The notes below the pieces were generated by a model. The model was not told where the DNA came from. It ran no database searches and saw only the letters and a program-made list of their open reading frames with translations. A stretch of DNA of 8,417 bases, taken from positions 1 through 8,417 of IMG/VR virus record IMGVR_UViG_2671180637_000014; one strand, written 5' to 3'. Positions 1-8,417 of this stretch are shown piece after piece; positions within the stretch are counted from its first letter, which is position 1; every line of letters begins with the position of its first letter. A program made the translations under genes and the position numbers. The DNA is from a virus (taxonomy: Duplodnaviria; Heunggongvirae; Uroviricota; Caudoviricetes).

Positions 1-1448
1 ACCTTATCAGTAAGGTGATGGGCAGTATTTCTAATCCTGAAATTCGCCGGATGGAGCTGATGAACACCATCGCCGGTATTGAGCGTTACGCCGCCGCAGA
101 GGGTGATGTGGGGATGTTTATCACGCTGACCGCGCCGTCAAAGTATCACCCGACACGTCAGGTCGGAAAAGGCGAAAGTAAAACCGTCCAGCTTAATCAC
201 GGCTGGAATGATGAGGCATTTAATCCAAAGGATGCGCAGCGATATCTCTGCCGTATCTGGAGCCTGATGCGCACGGCATTCAAGGATAATGATTTACAGG
301 TCTACGGTTTGCGAGTCGTCGAGCCACACCACGACGGAACGCCGCACTGGCATATGATGCTTTTTTGTAATCCACGCCAGCGTAACCAGATTATCGAAAT
401 CATGCGTCGCTATGCGCTCAAAGAGGATGGCGACGAAAGAGGAGCCGCGCGAAACCGTTTTCAGGCAAAACACCTTAACCGGGGCGGTGCTGCGGGGTAT
501 ATCGCGAAATACATCTCAAAAAATATCGACGGCTATGCACTGGATGGTCAGCTCGATAACGATACCGGCAGACCGCTGAAAGACACTGCCGCGGCTGTTA
601 CCGCATGGGCGTCAACGTGGCGCATTCCGCAATTTAAAACGGTTGGCCTGCCGACAATGGGGGCTTACCGTGAACTACGCAAATTGCCTCGCGGCGTCAG
701 CATTGCTGATGAGTTTGACGAACGCGTCGAGGCTGCACGCGCTGCCGCAGACAGTGGCGATTTTGCGCTGTATATCAGCGCGCAGGGTGGGGCAAATGTC
801 CCGCGCGATTGTCAGACTGTCAGGGTTGCCCGTAGCCCGTCGGATGACGTTAACGAGTATGAGGAAGAAGTCGGGAGAGTGGTCGGCATTTACGCGCCTC
901 ATCTCGGCGCGCGTCATATTCATATCACCAGAACGACGGACTGGCGCATTGTGCCGAAAGTGCCAGTCGTTGAGCCTTTGACTTTAAAAAGCGGCATCGC
1001 CGCGCCTCGGAGTCCTGTCAATAACTGTGGAAAGCTCACCGGTGGTGATACTTCGTTACCGGCTCCCACACCTTCTGAGCACGCCGCAGCAGTGCTAAAT
1101 CTGGTTGATGACGGTGTTATCGAATGGAATGACCCGGAGGTCGTGAGGACGCTCAGGGGTGCATTAAAACACGGCCTGAAAACACCAAATCGTCAGCAAA
1201 GAAACGGAAGCCCGTTAAAACCACATGAAATAGCACCGTCGGCCAGACTGACCCGGTCGGAACGATTGCAAATTACCCGTATCCGCGTTGATCTCGCTCA
1301 GAACGGTATCAGGCCGCAGCGATGGGAGCTTGAGGCGCTGGCGCGTGGCGCGACCGTAAATTATGACGGGAAACAATTCACGTATCCGGTTGCTGATGAG
1401 TGGCCGGGATTCTCCAACTTTATGGCGTTCAGTAGTGAACATTACTGA
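1..1448 (+). CDS. A: Replication initiation endonuclease (P2 gpA-like, rolling-circle HUH family); 5'-truncated by the window edge
   Basis: The reading frame is open from the window edge (no in-frame stop upstream of nt 15) to TGA at 1446-1448. It contains the HUH metal-binding motif HWHMMLF (nt 345-365) and the twin-tyrosine nicking motif GYIAKYISK (Tyr codons at 498-500 and 510-512), as in P2 gpA and phiX174-type initiators. GC-rich, enterobacterial-like codon usage. Confidence 0.88.
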   Translation, partial: LISKVMGSISNPEIRRMELMNTIAGIERYAAAEGDVGMFITLTAPSKYHPTRQVGKGESKTVQLNHGWNDEAFNPKDAQRYLCRIWSLMRTAFKDNDLQVYGLRVVEPHHDGTPHWHMMLFCNPRQRNQIIEIMRRYALKEDGDERGAARNRFQAKHLNRGGAAGYIAKYISKNIDGYALDGQLDNDTGRPLKDTAAAVTAWASTWRIPQFKTVGLPTMGAYRELRKLPRGVSIADEFDERVEAARAAADSGDFALYISAQGGANVPRDCQTVRVARSPSDDVNEYEEEVGRVVGIYAPHLGARHIHITRTTDWRIVPKVPVVEPLTLKSGIAAPRSPVNNCGKLTGGDTSLPAPTPSEHAAAVLNLVDDGVIEWNDPEVVRTLRGALKHGLKTPNRQQRNGSPLKPHEIAPSARLTRSERLQITRIRVDLAQNGIRPQRWELEALARGATVNYDGKQFTYPVADEWPGFSNFMAFSSEHY

Positions 1449-1520
1449 GAATCTTCGGTTTTTATTAGTTGTGAATAAGGGGAATAGCGTTCTGTACATA
1501 TGGGGCTATGTAATAAATAT

Positions 1521-1556
1521 AAACCGTCAGTTCATTCTGACGGTTTATATATTTTT
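1521..1556. terminator. Bidirectional intrinsic terminator between the convergent gene A and the SIR2-like gene
   Basis: Perfect 10-bp inverted repeat AAACCGTCAG (1521-1530) / CTGACGGTTT (1537-1546) with a 6-nt loop, flanked by T-rich sequence on the + strand (ATATATTTTTAT) and A/T-rich sequence on the - strand. It lies just downstream of both convergent stop codons. Confidence 0.6.
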
Positions 1557-1560
1557 ATGC

Positions 1561-3042
1561 TTAGTATGATAGAAAATCATACAGGCACAATAATTTACGG
1601 TAATGAGTATCTATTTTGTGTGATATAGAGATAAGATATTTTCTGAGTTGTGCTAAGGAAATGGTGTCATTAAGTACACAATACATGATTGTATTGGCTA
1701 CTTTATATTCTTTTGTTGTTTCTAATATCTCATCTATTGTTGTTGCATCACATCTGCACGCTTTAATTCTAGTGAGTTGATTTATTATCTTATCCAGTTG
1801 TCTGTCTTTGTATAGCTTAACGTTTTCTAATTCAGGGCATACAGAACTAAATGCGTAAATTGGAAAGTGCTCATGATTTGTGATAGTTTGTTTATTCAAA
1901 AGTGCAATGAGTTGTGCGTTAGCTTCATCGACAATTTTAAAGTAATTTTGAATCATTTCAGATTTTGTCTGGTATTCGTAGGTAACAGTTCTTTCTGAGC
2001 CTACAGCGATTACCATTTCTTCATTCCGTAATTCATCGAGGTTTTCCGTGATTTTTACCTTGATTTCACCGCCACTTTTTATTGTATTCCAGACTTTTTG
2101 TACTTTTCTTATATCCATTGCGGAAACAGGGAGAATTAAATTAGATATGGCATCGTAAACGGCTTTGTAATTGTCTGTTTTGATTTTGTTAATTCTTATA
2201 ATGGATAAACCTTCAATATTAATATCATGTTCAGAAATAGTTGTAGACATGTTCCCCTCATCATATTCAACAAGGAGAAAGTTGTCTTTTATTTTTTTTG
2301 CTAGTTCAGTATTTAGATCTACATATGAAAATATTGTCTGCAGGAGGTATTTAATATTCTTATCACTGATGCTATATCCTAAAAAAATAATGGGGTTGTG
2401 AATGAATATAGATAATAGTTGAGCACGTATTAACTCATATTTGTCATTAAAGTTATTATAATCATCAGATGTTATGATTATGTTGTTGGGGTCACTAACA
2501 CAACCGTGTATTTTATATACCGAGCCATATGGATTGCTTAGTAATATATTGTTGCCAATAAGCGGGGAGAAATCGAATAAATTTTCGATAAGTTGATCGT
2601 AATTGGTGGTAATAATTGAGCCAATATTCTTTCTTGTTTTTATTAAGCTATTAATCTCATCTCTTAAATCTTCTTTGAGAGGTGAGTCTTTTAATATTGA
2701 TGTTAGGTATATTTTGAACCGGCTAAGTTTTTTTCCATGACTCATGTTCTCGTAGAAAATATCATTGATGCTTTCAAACTTTCCGTTTCTGTCTTCGGCG
2801 AGTTTCTTATTGAAGATATTCTCTAATTTTGTTGCAAGAATGTCGTATCTGTATTCGTCACCTTCAATACTTTCCGATTTAAGATCATAATAAAATTCAG
2901 GATTGCCAGTTAAATCAACGGCAATTTTCATCAATAACCCATCCCAACTGAATGAGTTTTGCAGATATCTTAGACTAAAACCTGTACCTATAAAAAGAAC
3001 AGGGTGGTTTTTGTACTGGCTGACAAATTCTTTGATTTCCAT
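1561..3042 (-). CDS. SIR2-like (ThsA/DSR-type, SIR2_2-like) predicted NAD+-hydrolase with an uncharacterized C-terminal domain; candidate single-gene anti-phage defense protein (phage moron)
   Basis: 493-aa ORF, ATG at 3042-3040, TAA at 1563-1561, with no competing long ORF. The N-terminal half has the ordered SIR2 motif set: glycine-rich loop VLFIGTGFS (aa 15-23, nt 2974-3000), TTNYDQLIE with the predicted catalytic Asn147 (nt 2596-2610), YKIHGC with the predicted catalytic His179 (codon 2506-2508), and FLGYSISD (aa 220-227). Base composition is strongly AT-rich compared with the flanking phage genes. It sits at the gpA-cos position where P2 has tin/old. Confidence 0.8.
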   Translation of the reverse strand: MEIKEFVSQYKNHPVLFIGTGFSLRYLQNSFSWDGLLMKIAVDLTGNPEFYYDLKSESIEGDEYRYDILATKLENIFNKKLAEDRNGKFESINDIFYENMSHGKKLSRFKIYLTSILKDSPLKEDLRDEINSLIKTRKNIGSIITTNYDQLIENLFDFSPLIGNNILLSNPYGSVYKIHGCVSDPNNIIITSDDYNNFNDKYELIRAQLLSIFIHNPIIFLGYSISDKNIKYLLQTIFSYVDLNTELAKKIKDNFLLVEYDEGNMSTTISEHDINIEGLSIIRINKIKTDNYKAVYDAISNLILPVSAMDIRKVQKVWNTIKSGGEIKVKITENLDELRNEEMVIAVGSERTVTYEYQTKSEMIQNYFKIVDEANAQLIALLNKQTITNHEHFPIYAFSSVCPELENVKLYKDRQLDKIINQLTRIKACRCDATTIDEILETTKEYKVANTIMYCVLNDTISLAQLRKYLISISHKIDTHYRKLLCLYDFLSY

Positions 3043-3250
3043 ATTAATTCTCGAAGTTGATCATCGTTATCTCTATACAACCAAATAGCAGATAAAACTT
3101 CAAACAGACTTTCAAAAAGCGACATATGTTTTGGCAGAATAAGGATGAGCGCATCAGTGTCAAGAAGATTTGAGATCTTAATCTACTCAATAGGAACAAG
3201 ACGTCAGACTTAATTGTGTACTACCGGTGAAAACTGCCTGATAAAGTTGA
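3043..3250 (-). promoter_or_regulatory. Putative promoter/5' leader region of the SIR2-like gene
   Basis: AT-rich non-coding DNA immediately upstream of the ATG at 3042 on the - strand. There is a weak Shine-Dalgarno-like GAGA 7-10 nt upstream of the start, and a possible -35-like TTGAAG (plus coordinates 3098-3103), but no convincing -10 hexamer was identified by eye. Position and composition only; no transcription start site can be assigned. Confidence 0.3.
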
Positions 3251-3436
3251 ATCTACGGCATGATTCGTCGGTTTTTTATGCGATATTACCTTAGTTTCTG
3301 TTGTCCTTGGTAATACTGACGTTATTGCATTAAATTGCATGTGTTTTGATTTCATGCCCTTTGCCAACTACGTCAATACTGGTGCTGTTTCCACGTGTTT
3401 ATGCACTTGCATTAAAACCGCAACATGAAGCGGGCG

Positions 3437-3455
3437 GGCGAGGCGGGGAAAGCAC
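3437..3455. other. cos site: 19-nt cohesive-end sequence of P2-type phages
   Basis: The sequence GGCGAGGCGGGGAAAGCAC at 3437-3455 matches the P2 cohesive-end sequence as I recall it. It lies in a GC-rich block just outside the end of portal gene Q, the position expected for P2 cos. Confidence 0.75.
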
Positions 3456-3596
3456 TGCGCGCTGGCGGTGGTGCTGATTTTATTTTTTCAGCGTCTGAAC
3501 GCGCCGTGATGACGTTTAGATTGTTAGCCGGGGCGTTGGTGTGTCTGCGGGCTGTTTTGTGCGGTGGTGAGCGTGTGAGGGCGTGATGACGGGATG

Positions 3597-3619
3597 TAAA
3601 AAAGCCGCCCGCAGGCGGC
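3597..3619 (-). terminator. Intrinsic terminator downstream of portal gene Q (end of the P-Q operon)
   Basis: On the - strand: stem GCCGCC / GGCGGC (plus coordinates 3604-3609 and 3614-3619) with a 4-nt loop, followed by a run of six T's and an A (plus-strand A-run 3598-3603). It starts 5 nt after the Q stop codon. Confidence 0.65.
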
Positions 3620-3624
3620 GATGT

Positions 3625-4659
3625 TCAGCCGTTGTCAGTGTCCAGTGAGTAGTTTTTAAAGCGGATGACCTCCTGACCGAGCCAGCCGTTTATCTCGCGG
3701 ATCCTGTCCTGTAACGGGATAAGCTCATTGCGGACAAAGACCTTTGCCACTTTCTCAATATCGCCCAGCGACCCGACGTTCTCCGGCTTGCCGCCCATCA
3801 ACTGAAAGGGGATGCGGTGTGCGTCCAGCAGGTCAGCGGCGCTGGCTTTTTTGATATTAAAAAAATCGTCCTTCGTTGCCACTTCACTGAGGGGGATAAT
3901 TTTAATACCGTCGGCTTTCCCCTGTGGGGCATAGAGAAACAGATTTTTAAAGTTGTTGCGGCCTTTCGACTTGACCATGTTTTCGCGAAGCATTTCGATA
4001 TCGTTGCGATCCTGCACGGCATCGGTGACGTACATGATATATCCGGCATGAGCGCCGTTTTCGTAATACTTGCGGCGGAACAGCGTGGCCGACTCATTCA
4101 GCCAGGCAGAGTTAAGGGCGCTGAGATATTCCGGCAGGCCGTACAGCTCCTGATTAATATCCGGCTCCAGCAGGTGAAACACGGAGCCGGGCGCGAAGGC
4201 TGTCGGCTCGTTGAAGGACGGCACCCACCAGTAAACATCCTCCTCCACGCCACGGCGGGTATATTTTGCCGGTGAGGTTTCCAGTCTGATGACCTTACCG
4301 GTGGTGCTGTAACGCTTTTCCAGAAACGCATTACCGAACACCAGAAAATCCAGCACAAAGCGGCTGAAATCCTGCTGGGAAAGCCACGGATGCGGGATAA
4401 ACGTTGAAGCCAGAATATTACGTTTGACGTAAATCGGGGAGCTGTGATGCACGGCAGCACGCAGGCTTTTTGCCAGACCGGTAAAGCTGACCGGTGGCTC
4501 ATACCATCTGCCGTTACTGATGCATTCGACGTAATCCAGAATGTCACGGCGGTCGAGTACCGGCACCGGTTCGCCAAAGGTGAATGCCTCCATTTTCGGG
4601 GCGCTGGCGGTCATTTTTTTTGCCGCAGGTTGCGGTGTTTTCCCTTTTTTCTTGCTCAT
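3625..4659 (-). CDS. Q: Portal protein (P2 gpQ-like)
   Basis: 344-aa ORF, the same length as P2 gpQ. The lysine-rich N-terminus MSKKKGKTPQPAAKK and the overall sequence are recognisable as the P2-family portal. Its ATG (4659-4657) overlaps the stop codon of P by one nucleotide. High-GC phage-backbone composition. Confidence 0.93.
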   Translation of the reverse strand: MSKKKGKTPQPAAKKMTASAPKMEAFTFGEPVPVLDRRDILDYVECISNGRWYEPPVSFTGLAKSLRAAVHHSSPIYVKRNILASTFIPHPWLSQQDFSRFVLDFLVFGNAFLEKRYSTTGKVIRLETSPAKYTRRGVEEDVYWWVPSFNEPTAFAPGSVFHLLEPDINQELYGLPEYLSALNSAWLNESATLFRRKYYENGAHAGYIMYVTDAVQDRNDIEMLRENMVKSKGRNNFKNLFLYAPQGKADGIKIIPLSEVATKDDFFNIKKASAADLLDAHRIPFQLMGGKPENVGSLGDIEKVAKVFVRNELIPLQDRIREINGWLGQEVIRFKNYSLDTDNG

Positions 4660-6431
4660 CAGTAAAACTCCAGAATGGTGGATGTCAGCGGGGTGCTGAT
4701 ACCGGCGGTGAGTGGCTCATTTAACAGAGCGTGCATGGTCGCCCAGGCGAGGTCGGCGTGGCTGGCTTCCTCGCTGCGGCTGGCCTCATAGGTGGCGCTG
4801 CGTCCGCTGCTGGTCATGGTCTTGCGGATAGCCATAAACGAGCTGGTGATGTCGGTGGCGCTGACGTCATATTCCAGACAGCCACGGCGGATAACGTCTT
4901 TTGCCTTGAGCACCATTGCGGTTTTCATTTCCGGTGTGTAGCGGATGTCGCGCGCGGCGGGATAGAACGAGCGCACGAGCTGGAACACGCCGACACCGAG
5001 GCCGGTGGCATCAATACCGATGTATTCGACGTTATATTTTTCGGTGAGTTTGCGGATGGATTCCGCCTGGGTGGCAAAGTCCATGCCTTTCCACTGGTGA
5101 CGCTCAAGTATTCTGAATTTGCCACCGGCCACCACCGGCGGTGCCAGCACCACGCATCCGGCACTGTCGCCACGGTGTGACGGGTCGTAACCAATCCATA
5201 CCGGGCGGGAGCCGAACGGATTCGCGGCAAACGGCGCATAGTCTTCCCATTCTTCCAGCGTGTCGACCATGCAGCGTTGCAGCTCCTCGAACGGGAACAC
5301 CGACGCCTTGTCGTCAACAAATTCACACATGAACAGGTTTTTAAAATCGTCGGCGCTGTTTTCGCGTTTAAGCTGCTCAATGTCGAACAATGTGCAGCCG
5401 CCTTTCAGGGCGTCCTCAATGGTGACAATCTGCCGCCACTGGCCGTCCGCACAGAGAAGCCCACCGGCAAGGGCGTTATGACTGACGTCGATTTCCACGC
5501 GTTCGGCGGCGCTGGCGCGTCCCCGGTTGAACAGTTCCCCCGACCAGAACGGGTAGGCGTCGTGCGCCAGCGTGGACGGGGTGGAGAAATAGGTCGAGCG
5601 CAGGTGACTCTGTGAGGCCATACCTGATGCCACCTTACGCAGTACCTGAAAATTCGGGATCCAGAAAATCTCATCGACGTACAGGTCGCCGTTATGGCTC
5701 TGTGCGGTGTTGGAGTTGGTGCCGAGAAAAATCAGTTTTGCACCGTTATTGCCCAGGACAATCGGGTCACCGGTCAGGTCAACGTCAACCAGCCGGGCAA
5801 AGGCAATGATGTATTCGCGGAACACATACGCCTGCGTTTTACTGGCCGACAGAAAAATCTGGTTATGGCCGGTTTTCAGGGCGCGCAGCAGCGCCTCGCG
5901 GGAAAAATAAAACGTCGCGCCAATCTGGCGGGATTTCAGGATATCGCGGATGCGGTGCTCAAGCCCGGCACGATACCAGTGCAACTGATAGTCGAAAGAC
6001 TGCTCAAAGAAAATCTGCTCCAGCTTTTCGATAGCCTCGTCACTGAAAAAATTCTTTTTCGGTTTGCGCCGCCCGCCTTTGTTGCGGTTAGCGATGTTCG
6101 GATTAAGGTCTGCCTCGTTGCCGGTCTGGCTGTAGCGGTTGACCCGTGCCAGTCGTTCAATCTGGCGTCCGAGCAGGTCAATTTCCTTGAAGTCACCGCC
6201 GGTTTTCTGCGGTTTGATGATGAGCTGGGTCAGCCGCGCTTCCAGACTCATTTCGACACGGCTGATGGGGGCAACACTGTCCCAGCCGTCGCGCTGTTTC
6301 CAGCTCTGCACCGTCGGGCGTTTCATCTGCAACATGGCGGCAATCTGCGGCACGGAAAACCCCTGCCAGTACAGCAGCGCCGCCTGACGACGCGGGTCGT
6401 GTAAAAGAGTGGTGTCTGTGGTGATGGTCAT
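4659..6431 (-). CDS. P: Terminase large (ATPase/endonuclease) subunit (P2 gpP-like)
   Basis: Long - strand ORF. The start is assigned to the ATG at 6431-6429 (protein begins MTITTDTTLLHDP, 590 aa, the P2 gpP length) rather than the upstream ATG at 6461, because a GAGG Shine-Dalgarno lies 6-9 nt upstream of 6431. The TGA stop at 4661-4659 overlaps the Q start. The sequence is recognisable as the P2-family terminase ATPase subunit. Confidence 0.93.
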   Translation of the reverse strand: MTITTDTTLLHDPRRQAALLYWQGFSVPQIAAMLQMKRPTVQSWKQRDGWDSVAPISRVEMSLEARLTQLIIKPQKTGGDFKEIDLLGRQIERLARVNRYSQTGNEADLNPNIANRNKGGRRKPKKNFFSDEAIEKLEQIFFEQSFDYQLHWYRAGLEHRIRDILKSRQIGATFYFSREALLRALKTGHNQIFLSASKTQAYVFREYIIAFARLVDVDLTGDPIVLGNNGAKLIFLGTNSNTAQSHNGDLYVDEIFWIPNFQVLRKVASGMASQSHLRSTYFSTPSTLAHDAYPFWSGELFNRGRASAAERVEIDVSHNALAGGLLCADGQWRQIVTIEDALKGGCTLFDIEQLKRENSADDFKNLFMCEFVDDKASVFPFEELQRCMVDTLEEWEDYAPFAANPFGSRPVWIGYDPSHRGDSAGCVVLAPPVVAGGKFRILERHQWKGMDFATQAESIRKLTEKYNVEYIGIDATGLGVGVFQLVRSFYPAARDIRYTPEMKTAMVLKAKDVIRRGCLEYDVSATDITSSFMAIRKTMTSSGRSATYEASRSEEASHADLAWATMHALLNEPLTAGISTPLTSTILEFY

Positions 6432-6604
6432 GAATACCTCGCCGTGATGAATACACGGCAAGGCTACTGAGTCGCGCCCCGCGATTCGCTAAGGTGCTGT
6501 TGTGTCAGTGATAAGCCATCCGGGACTGATGGCGGAGGATGCGCATCGTCGGGAAACTGATGCCGACATGTGACTCCTCTAATCACTATTCAGGACTCCT
6601 GACA
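6432..6604. promoter_or_regulatory. Divergent intergenic region between P and O; expected site of the divergent late promoters of P2-like phages
   Basis: A 173-bp non-coding gap between the divergently transcribed P (-) and O (+) genes. In P2 this gap holds the Ogr-activated late promoters PP and PO. I could not find an exact TGT-N12-ACA activator element by eye, so the call rests on gene arrangement alone. Confidence 0.45.
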
Positions 6605-7459
6605 ATGGCAAAAAAAGCATCAAAATTCTTTCGTATCGGCGTTGAGGGTGACACCTGTGACGGGCGTGTCATCAGTGCGCAGGATATTCAGGAAATGGCC
6701 GAAACCTTTGACCCGCGAGTCTATGGTTGCCGCATTAACCTGGAACATCTGCGCGGCATCCTGCCTGACGGTATTTTTAAGCGTTATGGCGATGTGGTCG
6801 AACTGAAGGCCGAAAAGATTGACGATGATTCGGCGCTGAAAGGCAAATGGGCGCTGTTTGCGAAAATCACACCGACCGATGACCTTATCGCGATGAACAA
6901 GGCCGCGCAGAAGGTCTACACCTCAATGGAAATTCAGCCGAACTTTGCCAATACAGGCAAATGTTATCTGGTGGGTCTGGCCGTCACCGATGACCCGGCA
7001 AGCCTCGGCACGGAATACCTGGAATTCTGCCGCACGGCAAAACATAACCCTCTGAACCGCTTCAAATTAAGCCCTGAAAACCTGATTTCAGTGGCAACGC
7101 CTGTTGAGCTGGAATTTGAAGACCTGCCTGAAACCGTGTTCACCGCCCTGACCGAAAAGGTGAAATCCATTTTTGGCCGCAAACAGGCGAGCGATGACGC
7201 CCGTCTGAATGACGTGCATGAAGCGGTGACCGCTGTCGCTGAACATGTGCAGGAAAAACTGAGCGCCACTGAGCAGCGCCTCGCTGAGATGGAAACCGCC
7301 TTTTCCGCACTTAAGCAGGATGTGACTGACAGGGCGGATGAAACCAGCCAGGCATTCACCCGCCTGAAAAACAGCCTCGACCACACCGAAAGTCTGACCC
7401 AGCAGCGCCGCAGCAAGGCCACCGGCGGTGGCGGTGACGCCCTGATGACGAACTGCTGA
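6605..7459 (+). CDS. O: Capsid scaffolding protein (P2 gpO-like)
   Basis: The start is assigned to the ATG at 6605 (MAKKASKFFRIGVEGDTCDGRV...), giving 284 aa, the P2 gpO length. An AGGA Shine-Dalgarno lies at 6592-6595. The ORF-track start at 6539 is an in-frame upstream extension with no ribosome-binding site. TGA stop at 7457-7459. Confidence 0.92.
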   Translation: MAKKASKFFRIGVEGDTCDGRVISAQDIQEMAETFDPRVYGCRINLEHLRGILPDGIFKRYGDVVELKAEKIDDDSALKGKWALFAKITPTDDLIAMNKAAQKVYTSMEIQPNFANTGKCYLVGLAVTDDPASLGTEYLEFCRTAKHNPLNRFKLSPENLISVATPVELEFEDLPETVFTALTEKVKSIFGRKQASDDARLNDVHEAVTAVAEHVQEKLSATEQRLAEMETAFSALKQDVTDRADETSQAFTRLKNSLDHTESLTQQRRSKATGGGGDALMTNC

Positions 7460-7517
7460 CCGGCGTCAGTCAGTCCGGGAAAACCTTCACGATTAACCCT
7501 TAATTTCAGGAAAAACT

Positions 7518-8417
7518 ATGCGCCAGGAAACCCGCTTTAAATTTAATGCCTACCTGTCCCGTGTTGCCGAACTGAACGGCATCGACGCCGGTGATGTGTC
7601 GAAAAAATTCACCGTTGAACCGTCGGTCACCCAGACCCTGATGAACACCATGCAGGAGTCCTCTGATTTTCTGACCCGCATCAACATTGTGCCGGTCAGC
7701 GAAATGAAAGGGGAAAAAATTGGTATTGGTGTCACCGGCTCCATCGCCAGCACCACCGACACCGCCGGTGGCACCGAGCGTCAGCCGAAGGACTTCTCGA
7801 AGCTGGCGTCAAACAAGTACGAATGCGACCAGATTAACTTCGATTTTTATATCCGCTACAAAACGCTGGACCTGTGGGCGCGTTATCAGGATTTCCAGCT
7901 CCGTATCCGTAACGCCATTATCAAACGCCAGTCCCTTGATTTCATCATGGCCGGTTTTAACGGCGTGAAGCGTGCCGAAACCTCTGACCGCAGCAGCAAT
8001 CCGATGCTGCAGGATGTGGCGGTCGGCTGGCTGCAGAAATACCGCAATGAAGCCCCGGCGCGCGTGATGAGCAAGGTCACTGACGAGGAAGGTCACACGA
8101 CCTCTGAGGTCATCCGCGTGGGTAAGGGCGGTGATTATGCCAGCCTCGATGCACTGGTGATGGATGCGACCAACAACCTGATTGAGCCGTGGTATCAGGA
8201 AGACCCTGACCTTGTGGTGATTGTGGGGCGTCAGCTACTGGCGGACAAGTATTTCCCCATCGTCAACAAGGAGCAGGACAACAGCGAGATGCTGGCCGCT
8301 GACGTCATCATCAGCCAGAAACGCATCGGCAACCTGCCAGCGGTACGCGTCCCGTACTTCCCGGCGGATGCGATGCTCATCACGAAGCTGGAAAACCTGT
8401 CCATCTACTACATGGAT
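7518..8417 (+). CDS. N: Major capsid protein (P2 gpN-like); 3'-truncated by the window edge
   Basis: ATG at 7518 preceded by AGGA (7507-7510). The frame is open for 300 codons to the end of the window. The translation MRQETRFKFNAYLSRVAELNGIDAGD... is recognisable as the P2-family major capsid protein and follows O in the conserved O-N order. Confidence 0.92.
   Translation, partial: MRQETRFKFNAYLSRVAELNGIDAGDVSKKFTVEPSVTQTLMNTMQESSDFLTRINIVPVSEMKGEKIGIGVTGSIASTTDTAGGTERQPKDFSKLASNKYECDQINFDFYIRYKTLDLWARYQDFQLRIRNAIIKRQSLDFIMAGFNGVKRAETSDRSSNPMLQDVAVGWLQKYRNEAPARVMSKVTDEEGHTTSEVIRVGKGGDYASLDALVMDATNNLIEPWYQEDPDLVVIVGRQLLADKYFPIVNKEQDNSEMLAADVIISQKRIGNLPAVRVPYFPADAMLITKLENLSIYYMD

Follow-up and report, generated by a model that had tools for sequence, protein, structure and literature searches.

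The 'TO region' of phage P2 was reportedly described by Odegrip et al. in 2006, and it is a locus of this kind, in the genome of a P2-like phage, that we analyze here. The DNA in question, hereafter the window, is the whole stretch of 8,417 nucleotides that makes up positions 1 to 8,417 of IMG/VR record IMGVR_UViG_2671180637_000014. It is an 8.4-kb segment of a P2-like (Peduovirus) genome that runs from the 3′-end of replication gene A (gpA) through a cargo and the cos site to genes Q, P and O. The cargo is flanked by replication gene A on one side and cos/portal gene Q on the other, the position that defines TO-region cargo, and the locus is the one that has been called the 'TO region' of P2-like phages (PMC6823313). 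It is likewise the gpA–gpQ defence hotspot, for which Rousset et al. (2022) recorded 1,650 arrangements in 18,150 loci (PMC9122126), and P2 defence hotspot #1 of Vassallo et al. (2022) (PMC9519451). Even the particular cargo has been noted: Table S5A of Rousset et al. lists WP_021514374 as a lone 'SIR2_2' cargo of the slot (PMC9122126), and this is the accession annotated for a 98.9%-identical copy in E. coli Br_54.

Our analysis indicates that the window from 1415 to ∼3400 is very probably an interchangeable cargo cassette of the P2-like gpA–cos hotspot. The cassette consists of a gpA ending of 11 codons, a bidirectional terminator and one minus-strand gene together with its upstream region; it adjoins an extended packaging flank, in which TGCAT repeats begin at 3326 and cos at 3437, and its junctions coincide with change points in guanine-plus-cytosine (GC) content. 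Its features are as follows (aa, amino acids).

1415-1448, plus strand: cargo-specific tail of gpA, the last 11 codons and the stop codon, with the junction at 1414/1415
1517-1550, both strands: bidirectional intrinsic terminator with a 14-bp stem, between the convergent gpA and SIR2 genes
1561-3042, minus strand: the single cargo gene, encoding a 493-aa SIR2_2-domain protein (PADLOC candidate PDC-S25, PHROG 2695)
3043-3120, minus strand: 5′ leader that travels with the gene between phage types (homology end points 3085-3120)
3136-3163, minus strand: putative sigma-70-like promoter upstream of the SIR2 gene, TTGACA-16-TATTCT (10/12 consensus matches)

The variable nature of the slot is evident from comparison with other phages. 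The flanks of the window are 95-99% identical to those of more than 90 P2-like phages, which carry unrelated cargos, and the gap between the flanks is covered by no phage of the GenBank collection. In each of nine phages whose flanks are 96-98% identical, a different cargo lies between gpA and cos: DUF3850 plus a hypothetical gene; Dcm plus paraMORC3; Fic/VbhT; DUF4209; an exoribonuclease plus an unknown gene; a reverse transcriptase (RT) gene plus a retron Ec48-type RT and effector; DUF4238; cytolethal distending toxin (L011); and tin/old. The SIR2 cargo itself is rare. It was found in 5 of 5426 complete E. coli genomes, 2154 of which contain P2-like Q/cos (in 3088 places), that is, in ∼0.2% of P2-like loci, and in none of 120 cos-bearing IMG/VR contigs. 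The exact SIR2 protein is nonetheless present on many assemblies, without exception in the order gpA|SIR2|Q.

These data bear out the proposal, made in an earlier note on this DNA, that cargo is exchanged here in modular fashion, and alignment to the other P2-like phages places the gene in the variable cargo and not in the conserved core. The note had also taken P2's tin and old genes to be absent, and they are: tblastn searches with tin, old and orf91 returned nothing better than E=0.3. Its wording that the cargo replaces tin/old nevertheless presumes tin/old to be ancestral, when they are just one of more than 1,650 arrangements on record (PMC9122126). It could be argued that the AT-rich block is instead an ancestral, conserved part of the lineage whose composition reflects local selection, with no horizontal exchange, and the slot is indeed AT-rich in all P2-like phages. 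This view is practically untenable: unrelated genes fill the slot between 96-98% identical flanks, the SIR2 cargo is confined to the small fraction of loci given above, and an identical cassette recurs in diverged backbones, so that the comparative data refute it.

To map the left junction the window was compared with nine P2-like phages, each with a different cargo. Nucleotide identity to these is 96-97% over positions 1-1403/1414, and homology ends at 1403-1414, within the gpA coding sequence (the stop codon is at 1446-1448). Because the breakpoints fall at 1403-1414, the left junction lies inside gene A. The gpA proteins are common up to the sequence DEWPGFS, after which they continue with tails of 3-11 aa that differ by cargo. 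From this divergence, and from the location of the junction in gene A, it follows that the cassette brings with it the last 11 codons of gpA, the stop codon and the terminator. gpA is an essential replication protein, and its last 11 codons belong to the cargo cassette; since each cargo brings a different tail, the C-terminal tail of gpA must tolerate change functionally.

The bidirectional terminator that the earlier note had placed at about 1521-1556 is real, and is located at 1517-1550. Its hairpin has predicted free energies (dG) of -22.5 and -19 kcal/mol, with z ∼-7 on both strands and T-rich tails on both, and a hairpin of such stability was reached by 0 of 200 shuffled sequences. The terminator falls within the non-homologous block and is therefore part of the cassette. 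It does not mark the left boundary, as had been claimed: the true junction is at 1414/1415, which puts the proposed boundary ∼100-140 bp too far to the right. The sole pair of flanking repeats (1449-1463 and 3262-3276, 13/15 identical) is consistent with chance, the cassette ends bear no sign of integrase- or transposase-type ends, and an Rfam scan of 1300-3700 at E<=1 gave chance-level matches only (to plant-virus and snoRNA models).

Further evidence of exchange comes from contigs that encode the identical protein. Across 1161-3498 these show only 1-2 differences from the window, while the flanks of this tract differ by 1.0-3.2%, or ∼113 differences in 4.7 kb, a rate at which ∼56 differences would be expected in the tract. 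The near-identical tract takes in ∼250 bp of the 3′-end of gpA and cos itself. A near-identical tract within backbones that have diverged by 1-3% suggests that cassettes were exchanged through recombination within the flanks, and the proposed mechanism is that cassettes are swapped between related P2-like genomes through homologous recombination in the 3′-end of gpA and in the cos/Q region. Against this account it must be said that the tract may equally reflect backbones recombining around a fixed cassette, which leaves the direction of exchange ambiguous.

The base composition of the window shows the same limits. GC content is 54.5% over 1-1414, 32.9% over 1415-3407 and 55.4% over 3408-8417; in 200-bp windows it is 49-59% up to ∼1400, 28.5-39% from ∼1400 to ∼3400 and 47-65% beyond. 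A two-change-point likelihood fit, with 100 shuffles as control, placed the changes after base 1408 (support interval 1405-1459) and after base 3417 (3346-3431) with a log-likelihood ratio of 157 (maximum among the shuffles 13.8), and the sharply bounded AT-rich block that had been seen by eye is thereby put on a quantitative footing. A codon-level profile likewise sets the SIR2 gene (overall GC 31.8%) clearly apart from its neighbors: GC at third codon positions is 30.6% as against 55-71% in gpA, Q, P and O. The difference extends to the encoded proteins: the residues F, Y, M, I, N and K account for 40.6% of the SIR2 protein as against 22-30% in the phage proteins, and G, A, R and P for 12% as against 26-34%.

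What this composition means depends on the wider distribution of the gene. The SIR2 protein family comprises 256 clusters at 50% identity (E<1e-30), mostly of 500-540 aa, and GenBank phages contain no close homologue (best 28% identity). Homologues are inserted singly in temperate phages of three unrelated types – P2-like, Enc34-like (ssb|SIR2|polA) and lambdoid (P|SIR2|ninB) – and also occur in insertion sequence or defence-island contexts. Those at 70-83% identity are located at L012 6001-7482, L013 6001-7506 and L146 5001-6488. In E. coli O21 and Klebsiella the homologue sits between genes for an Enc34-type ssDNA-binding protein and DNA polymerase A, and in Cronobacter between lambda-P-like and ninB genes; in every phage context a neighbor of the homologue is a replication gene. 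DNA homology among phage types is confined to the open reading frame (ORF) plus at most 78 nt of leader, nucleotide homology of the leader to the E. coli O21, Klebsiella and Cronobacter prophage copies ending at 3085-3120. A candidate promoter in this conserved leader was dropped because of its 20-nt spacer.

Two of these settings contain further genes. In the E. coli O21 prophage a TIR-domain gene (CAP12-PCTIR_TIR, L012 9691-10449) lies two genes downstream of the SIR2 homologue; it is absent from the collinear Klebsiella prophage and is probably an independent accessory gene. On Firmicute metagenome contigs (L018/L019 1-4126) a 56%-identical homologue is found beside a large reverse-transcriptase gene, an HATPase_c_4 gene and fragments of recombinases, a setting that looks like a defence island.

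The earlier note had read the low GC as the signature of a donor of much lower GC content. That the AT-richness records a recent import from such an organism may seem attractive given that the contrast is large (32% vs 55%) and reaches into amino-acid composition, and that low-GC Firmicutes and their phages do have distant homologues. We consider it very unlikely. The closest relatives of the SIR2 protein are all enterobacterial, those at 70-99% identity being found in Enterobacterales with genomes of 50-57% GC. Moreover, homologues remain at 32-35% GC from 83% down to 54% amino-acid identity in all hosts tested, whether the flanks are at 49-55% (E. coli O21 and Klebsiella prophages), 48-50% (Cronobacter lambdoid prophages) or 52-57% (Nitrosospira), and even in Firmicutes, where flanks are at 37-41%, the gene is still below them. 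Nor is the SIR2 gene exceptional among cargos of the slot: all nine examined are 33-42% GC, among them P2's own tin/old block at 35.1%, and in 36 P2-like contigs mean GC is 36.9±3.7% over the 1.5 kb upstream of cos and 54.7±0.2% downstream of it. A low-GC donor is thus not supported. Since homologues keep to 32-35% GC whatever the GC of the host, low GC is a persistent trait of a mobile gene pool; the AT-richness is a lasting feature of this pool, common to every cargo examined in the slot, and not a datable fingerprint of a particular donor. This accords with xenogeneic silencing and with the general tendency of mobile accessory genes to be AT-biased.

The slot holds one credible gene only. 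Small ORFs in the spacer (3043-3440) are short, TTG-started or otherwise unsupported, and have no family match. That the ∼1.5-kb gene is SIR2-like, as first suggested from its letters, was confirmed by a Pfam SIR2_2 match (3.2e-22, 79.6 bits vs a gathering cut-off of 24.5). The protein also matches the PADLOC PDC-S25 model PDLC04968 (8e-157, aa 2-493 on profile positions 13-514 of 517) and, over aa 127-301 only, the PADLOC ThsA SIR2-domain model (7.7e-20); NCBIfam gave no meaningful match. In 30 homologues there is no variation at N147/D149/H179, which align to the catalytic residues N112/H152 of ThsA, or in an N-terminal GxGxS nucleotide-binding motif.

An AlphaFold (AF2) model (predicted local distance difference test, pLDDT, 75) shows a SIR2 domain followed by an all-helical domain at 360-493. 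The latter, modelled alone, reaches a pLDDT of 86.5 and matches no known fold. A Foldseek search with the whole model returned as best PDB folds DSR2, KomC, ThsA, SIR2-HerA and AVAST5, which are defence NADases. Residues 306-356 (window 1975-2127) are highly conserved yet have a pLDDT below 50 in the model; invariant residues in or near this segment include P305, S307-D310, R312, Q315, G324, G325, N340, G348 and Y355. The segment is a candidate for an interface at which the protein oligomerises, binds a ligand or senses a trigger.

On this basis we lean towards the view that the SIR2 protein is a stand-alone, prophage-encoded abortive-infection NADase with a phage trigger. The SIR2 NADase domain at its N-terminus, whose active site resembles those of ThsA and DSR2 (N147, H179), would be kept inactive until the conserved segment 306-356, the helical domain at the C-terminus, or both, detected a component of a phage. 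Detection would then lead to depletion of nicotinamide adenine dinucleotide (NAD+) and to a block of the superinfecting phage, with protection of the lysogen population and of the prophage.

A number of points weigh against this view. NADase activity, trigger and defence phenotype are predictions from SIR2-domain homology, and identity to solved defence SIR2 proteins is 15-21%. The PHROG family to which the protein belongs (phrog_2695, 2.6e-155) is labelled 'unknown function', and PDC-S25 is a PADLOC 'candidate' only; the single paper naming PDC-S25 merely lists it, and literature searches returned no experimental report on PDC-S25-type proteins or such single-gene SIR2 systems. Finally, promoter-like sites in the region are no commoner than in shuffles (9 vs 8.7).

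The protein could instead be a deacylase or ADP-ribosyltransferase that serves the prophage otherwise, in lysogeny regulation, host metabolism or counter-defence. The PDC-S25 family is a bioinformatic bin, the gene lies beside replication genes in other phage types, and roughly one in four cargos of the P2 hotspot has a role other than defence, for example partition systems and CDT toxin (PMC9122126). We nevertheless regard such a role as rather unlikely, as the domain is of the SIR2_2 type and not a canonical sirtuin (there is no other Pfam match), the sequence is without a CxxC...CxxC zinc module, the best matches in sequence as well as in fold are all to the five defence NADases named above, and the Firmicute homologue adjoins reverse-transcriptase, ATPase and recombinase genes.

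Matches to the SIR2 domain of ThsA in both PADLOC and PDB, and the TIR-domain gene near the E. coli O21 homologue (L012), might also suggest a Thoeris-like or SIR2-HerA-like effector whose partner, a TIR signal generator or HerA, is encoded elsewhere. This is hardly credible in view of a slot with a single credible gene, homologues that are solo in 6 of 6 contexts examined and a collinear Klebsiella locus from which the TIR gene is missing; in addition the C-terminal domain is all-helical, not SLOG/STALD, and the ThsA match spans just aa 127-301.

The right-hand limit of the cassette is bound up with the packaging site, the elements of which are the following.

3326-3340, plus strand: TGCAT-N5-TGCAT, the distal conserved element of the extended cos flank (offsets -111/-101 from cos)
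3401-3455, plus strand: core cos region, with ATGCA/TGCAT (3401-3412), a conserved block and the 19-nt cohesive-end sequence GGCGAGGCGGGGAAAGCAC (3437-3455)

Homology to P2-like phages resumes at 3395-3409, from where the right flank is 97-98% identical; in Yersinia phage YpM_50 it resumes at 3323. The 19-mer GGCGAGGCGGGGAAAGCAC is identical to the annotated cosL/cosR of P2 (NC_001895), and per-column information content around cos is high from -36 to +25. We surveyed the flanks of 83 distinct P2-like and P4-like cos contexts. TGCAT was present at exactly -111 in 47 of the 83 and at exactly -101 in 52, with 11 more in each case 1 bp off, whereas the spacer between the elements is not conserved; a third TGCAT is frequent at -124/-121, and ATGCA/TGCAT at -36/-29. 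Conserved cos architecture thus reaches ∼125 bp on the cargo side, in P2-like phages and P4-like satellites alike. The earlier note's right boundary of ∼3420 holds for base composition, with its change point after 3417, but not for the packaging flank, whose conserved motifs start already at ∼3326.

The shared cos site has been quoted as '55-bp', and longer flanks raise cosmid transduction more than 1000-fold (PMC9594776). Phased TGCAT repeats 100-125 bp from cos may be a hitherto undescribed part of the packaging signal; they probably form an array of binding sites for terminase or a host factor. If the repeats do belong to the packaging signal, the right-hand edge of the hotspot would be fixed by them. 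A GC-rich ORF of 53 aa (3425-3586, plus strand) overlaps cos, and some records of P2-like phages (L002, L011) label it 'hypothetical protein'. No protein family supports it, and it probably does not represent a gene.

A broader reading can be advanced more tentatively, as a possibility to which we give somewhat less than an even chance. PDC-S25-type proteins would constitute a new, minimal and self-contained class of phage-sensing SIR2 NADase, and the family would hop as a bare ORF among accessory slots in temperate phages of at least three unrelated families, with the TGCAT repeats perhaps part of a packaging signal. The sensor would be the invariant 306-356 segment together with the small helical domain, and the trigger would be unlike those of DSR2 or Thoeris.

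The remainder of the window is P2-like backbone.

15-1448, plus strand: replication gene A (gpA), 3′ two-thirds, C-terminal 477 aa (Pfam Phage_GPA 1.8e-74)
3604-3619, minus strand: terminator 3′ of Q (P2 tQ equivalent), a GC-rich hairpin followed by a T run
3625-4659, minus strand: portal gene Q, right-hand backbone (Pfam Phage_portal)
4659-6431, minus strand: terminase gene P, beyond which lie scaffold gene O and the start of N

In the P2 reference (NC_001895) cosL, cosR, tQ and Q stand at positions corresponding to those in the window, and the P2 annotation puts tQ at the same relative position. The E. coli Br_54 prophage has in addition to the SIR2 cargo a pair of genes for an AAA ATPase and a DUF4435 protein between the tail-fibre assembly and tail-sheath genes (L003 38077-40179), and therefore carries two accessory loads. 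The AAA ATPase plus DUF4435 domain pair was named PARIS by Rousset et al. (PMC9122126), and its position among the tail genes is the second P2 hotspot of Vassallo et al. (PMC9519451).

Several consequences follow. The finding mainly confirms textbook P2-like behavior, namely an AT-rich, interchangeable accessory cassette beside cos. The junction in the gpA tail and the shared tract at 1161-3498 show cargo swapping and can guide the engineering of P2 vectors, and a compact candidate defence gene (493 aa, stand-alone, with an intact SIR2 active site) makes an easy cloning target. A caution is also in order: low GC in phage accessory genes should not count as evidence for a low-GC donor.

Comparison with described systems places the protein near, but not within, several of them. 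DSR2 (defence-associated sirtuin 2) of Bacillus subtilis is, like the SIR2 cargo, a single protein with an N-terminal SIR2 domain of the NADase type and an all-helical C-terminal region, and is the top Foldseek PDB match (E 1e-6, query-normalised template modelling score ∼0.3; SIR2-domain chains 19-21% identical). The cargo protein is not DSR2, however, having 493 aa versus ∼1000 aa with a long helical-repeat C-domain, and no PADLOC DSR match at E<=0.1. ThsA provides the best PDB sequence match to the SIR2 domain (6lhx, 1.3e-8), and the catalytic N and H are conserved; identity with Thoeris ThsA was rejected, as the cargo has neither the SLOG/STALD ligand-binding domain nor an adjacent thsB/TIR gene. 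SIR2-HerA (Gao_19/Nezha) was set aside likewise, there being no HerA-type partner gene and a weak, partial PADLOC SIR2 match (6.8e-5, aa 125-157), and so was a canonical sirtuin (CobB/Sir2), given that the cargo has no PF02146 match and no Cys4 zinc module or CxxC pairs.

AbiH is shorter than the 493-aa cargo protein, and neither Pfam nor PADLOC gave an AbiH match to the cargo at E<=0.1. What lactococcal AbiH shares with it is the concept of one SIR2-like protein for abortive infection (PMC13064643). pFR88, the P4-hotspot SIR2 protein tested by Rousset et al., is of different sequence and so has no bearing on the cargo family. PDC-S25 and PHROG 2695, both of them bioinformatic bins, are matched by the cargo over the full length of their hidden Markov models.

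At the level of the locus the comparison is simpler. The P2 TO-region hotspot has the same location, the same flanking genes, the same adjacency to cos, AT-rich variable cargo and short systems, and nothing essential differs. Because the phenomenon and the pairing of slot and gene are already on record (Rousset et al. 2022), novelty is low; to the literature the present analysis adds base-level junctions within the gpA tail, the near-identical cassette tract and the family-wide low GC.

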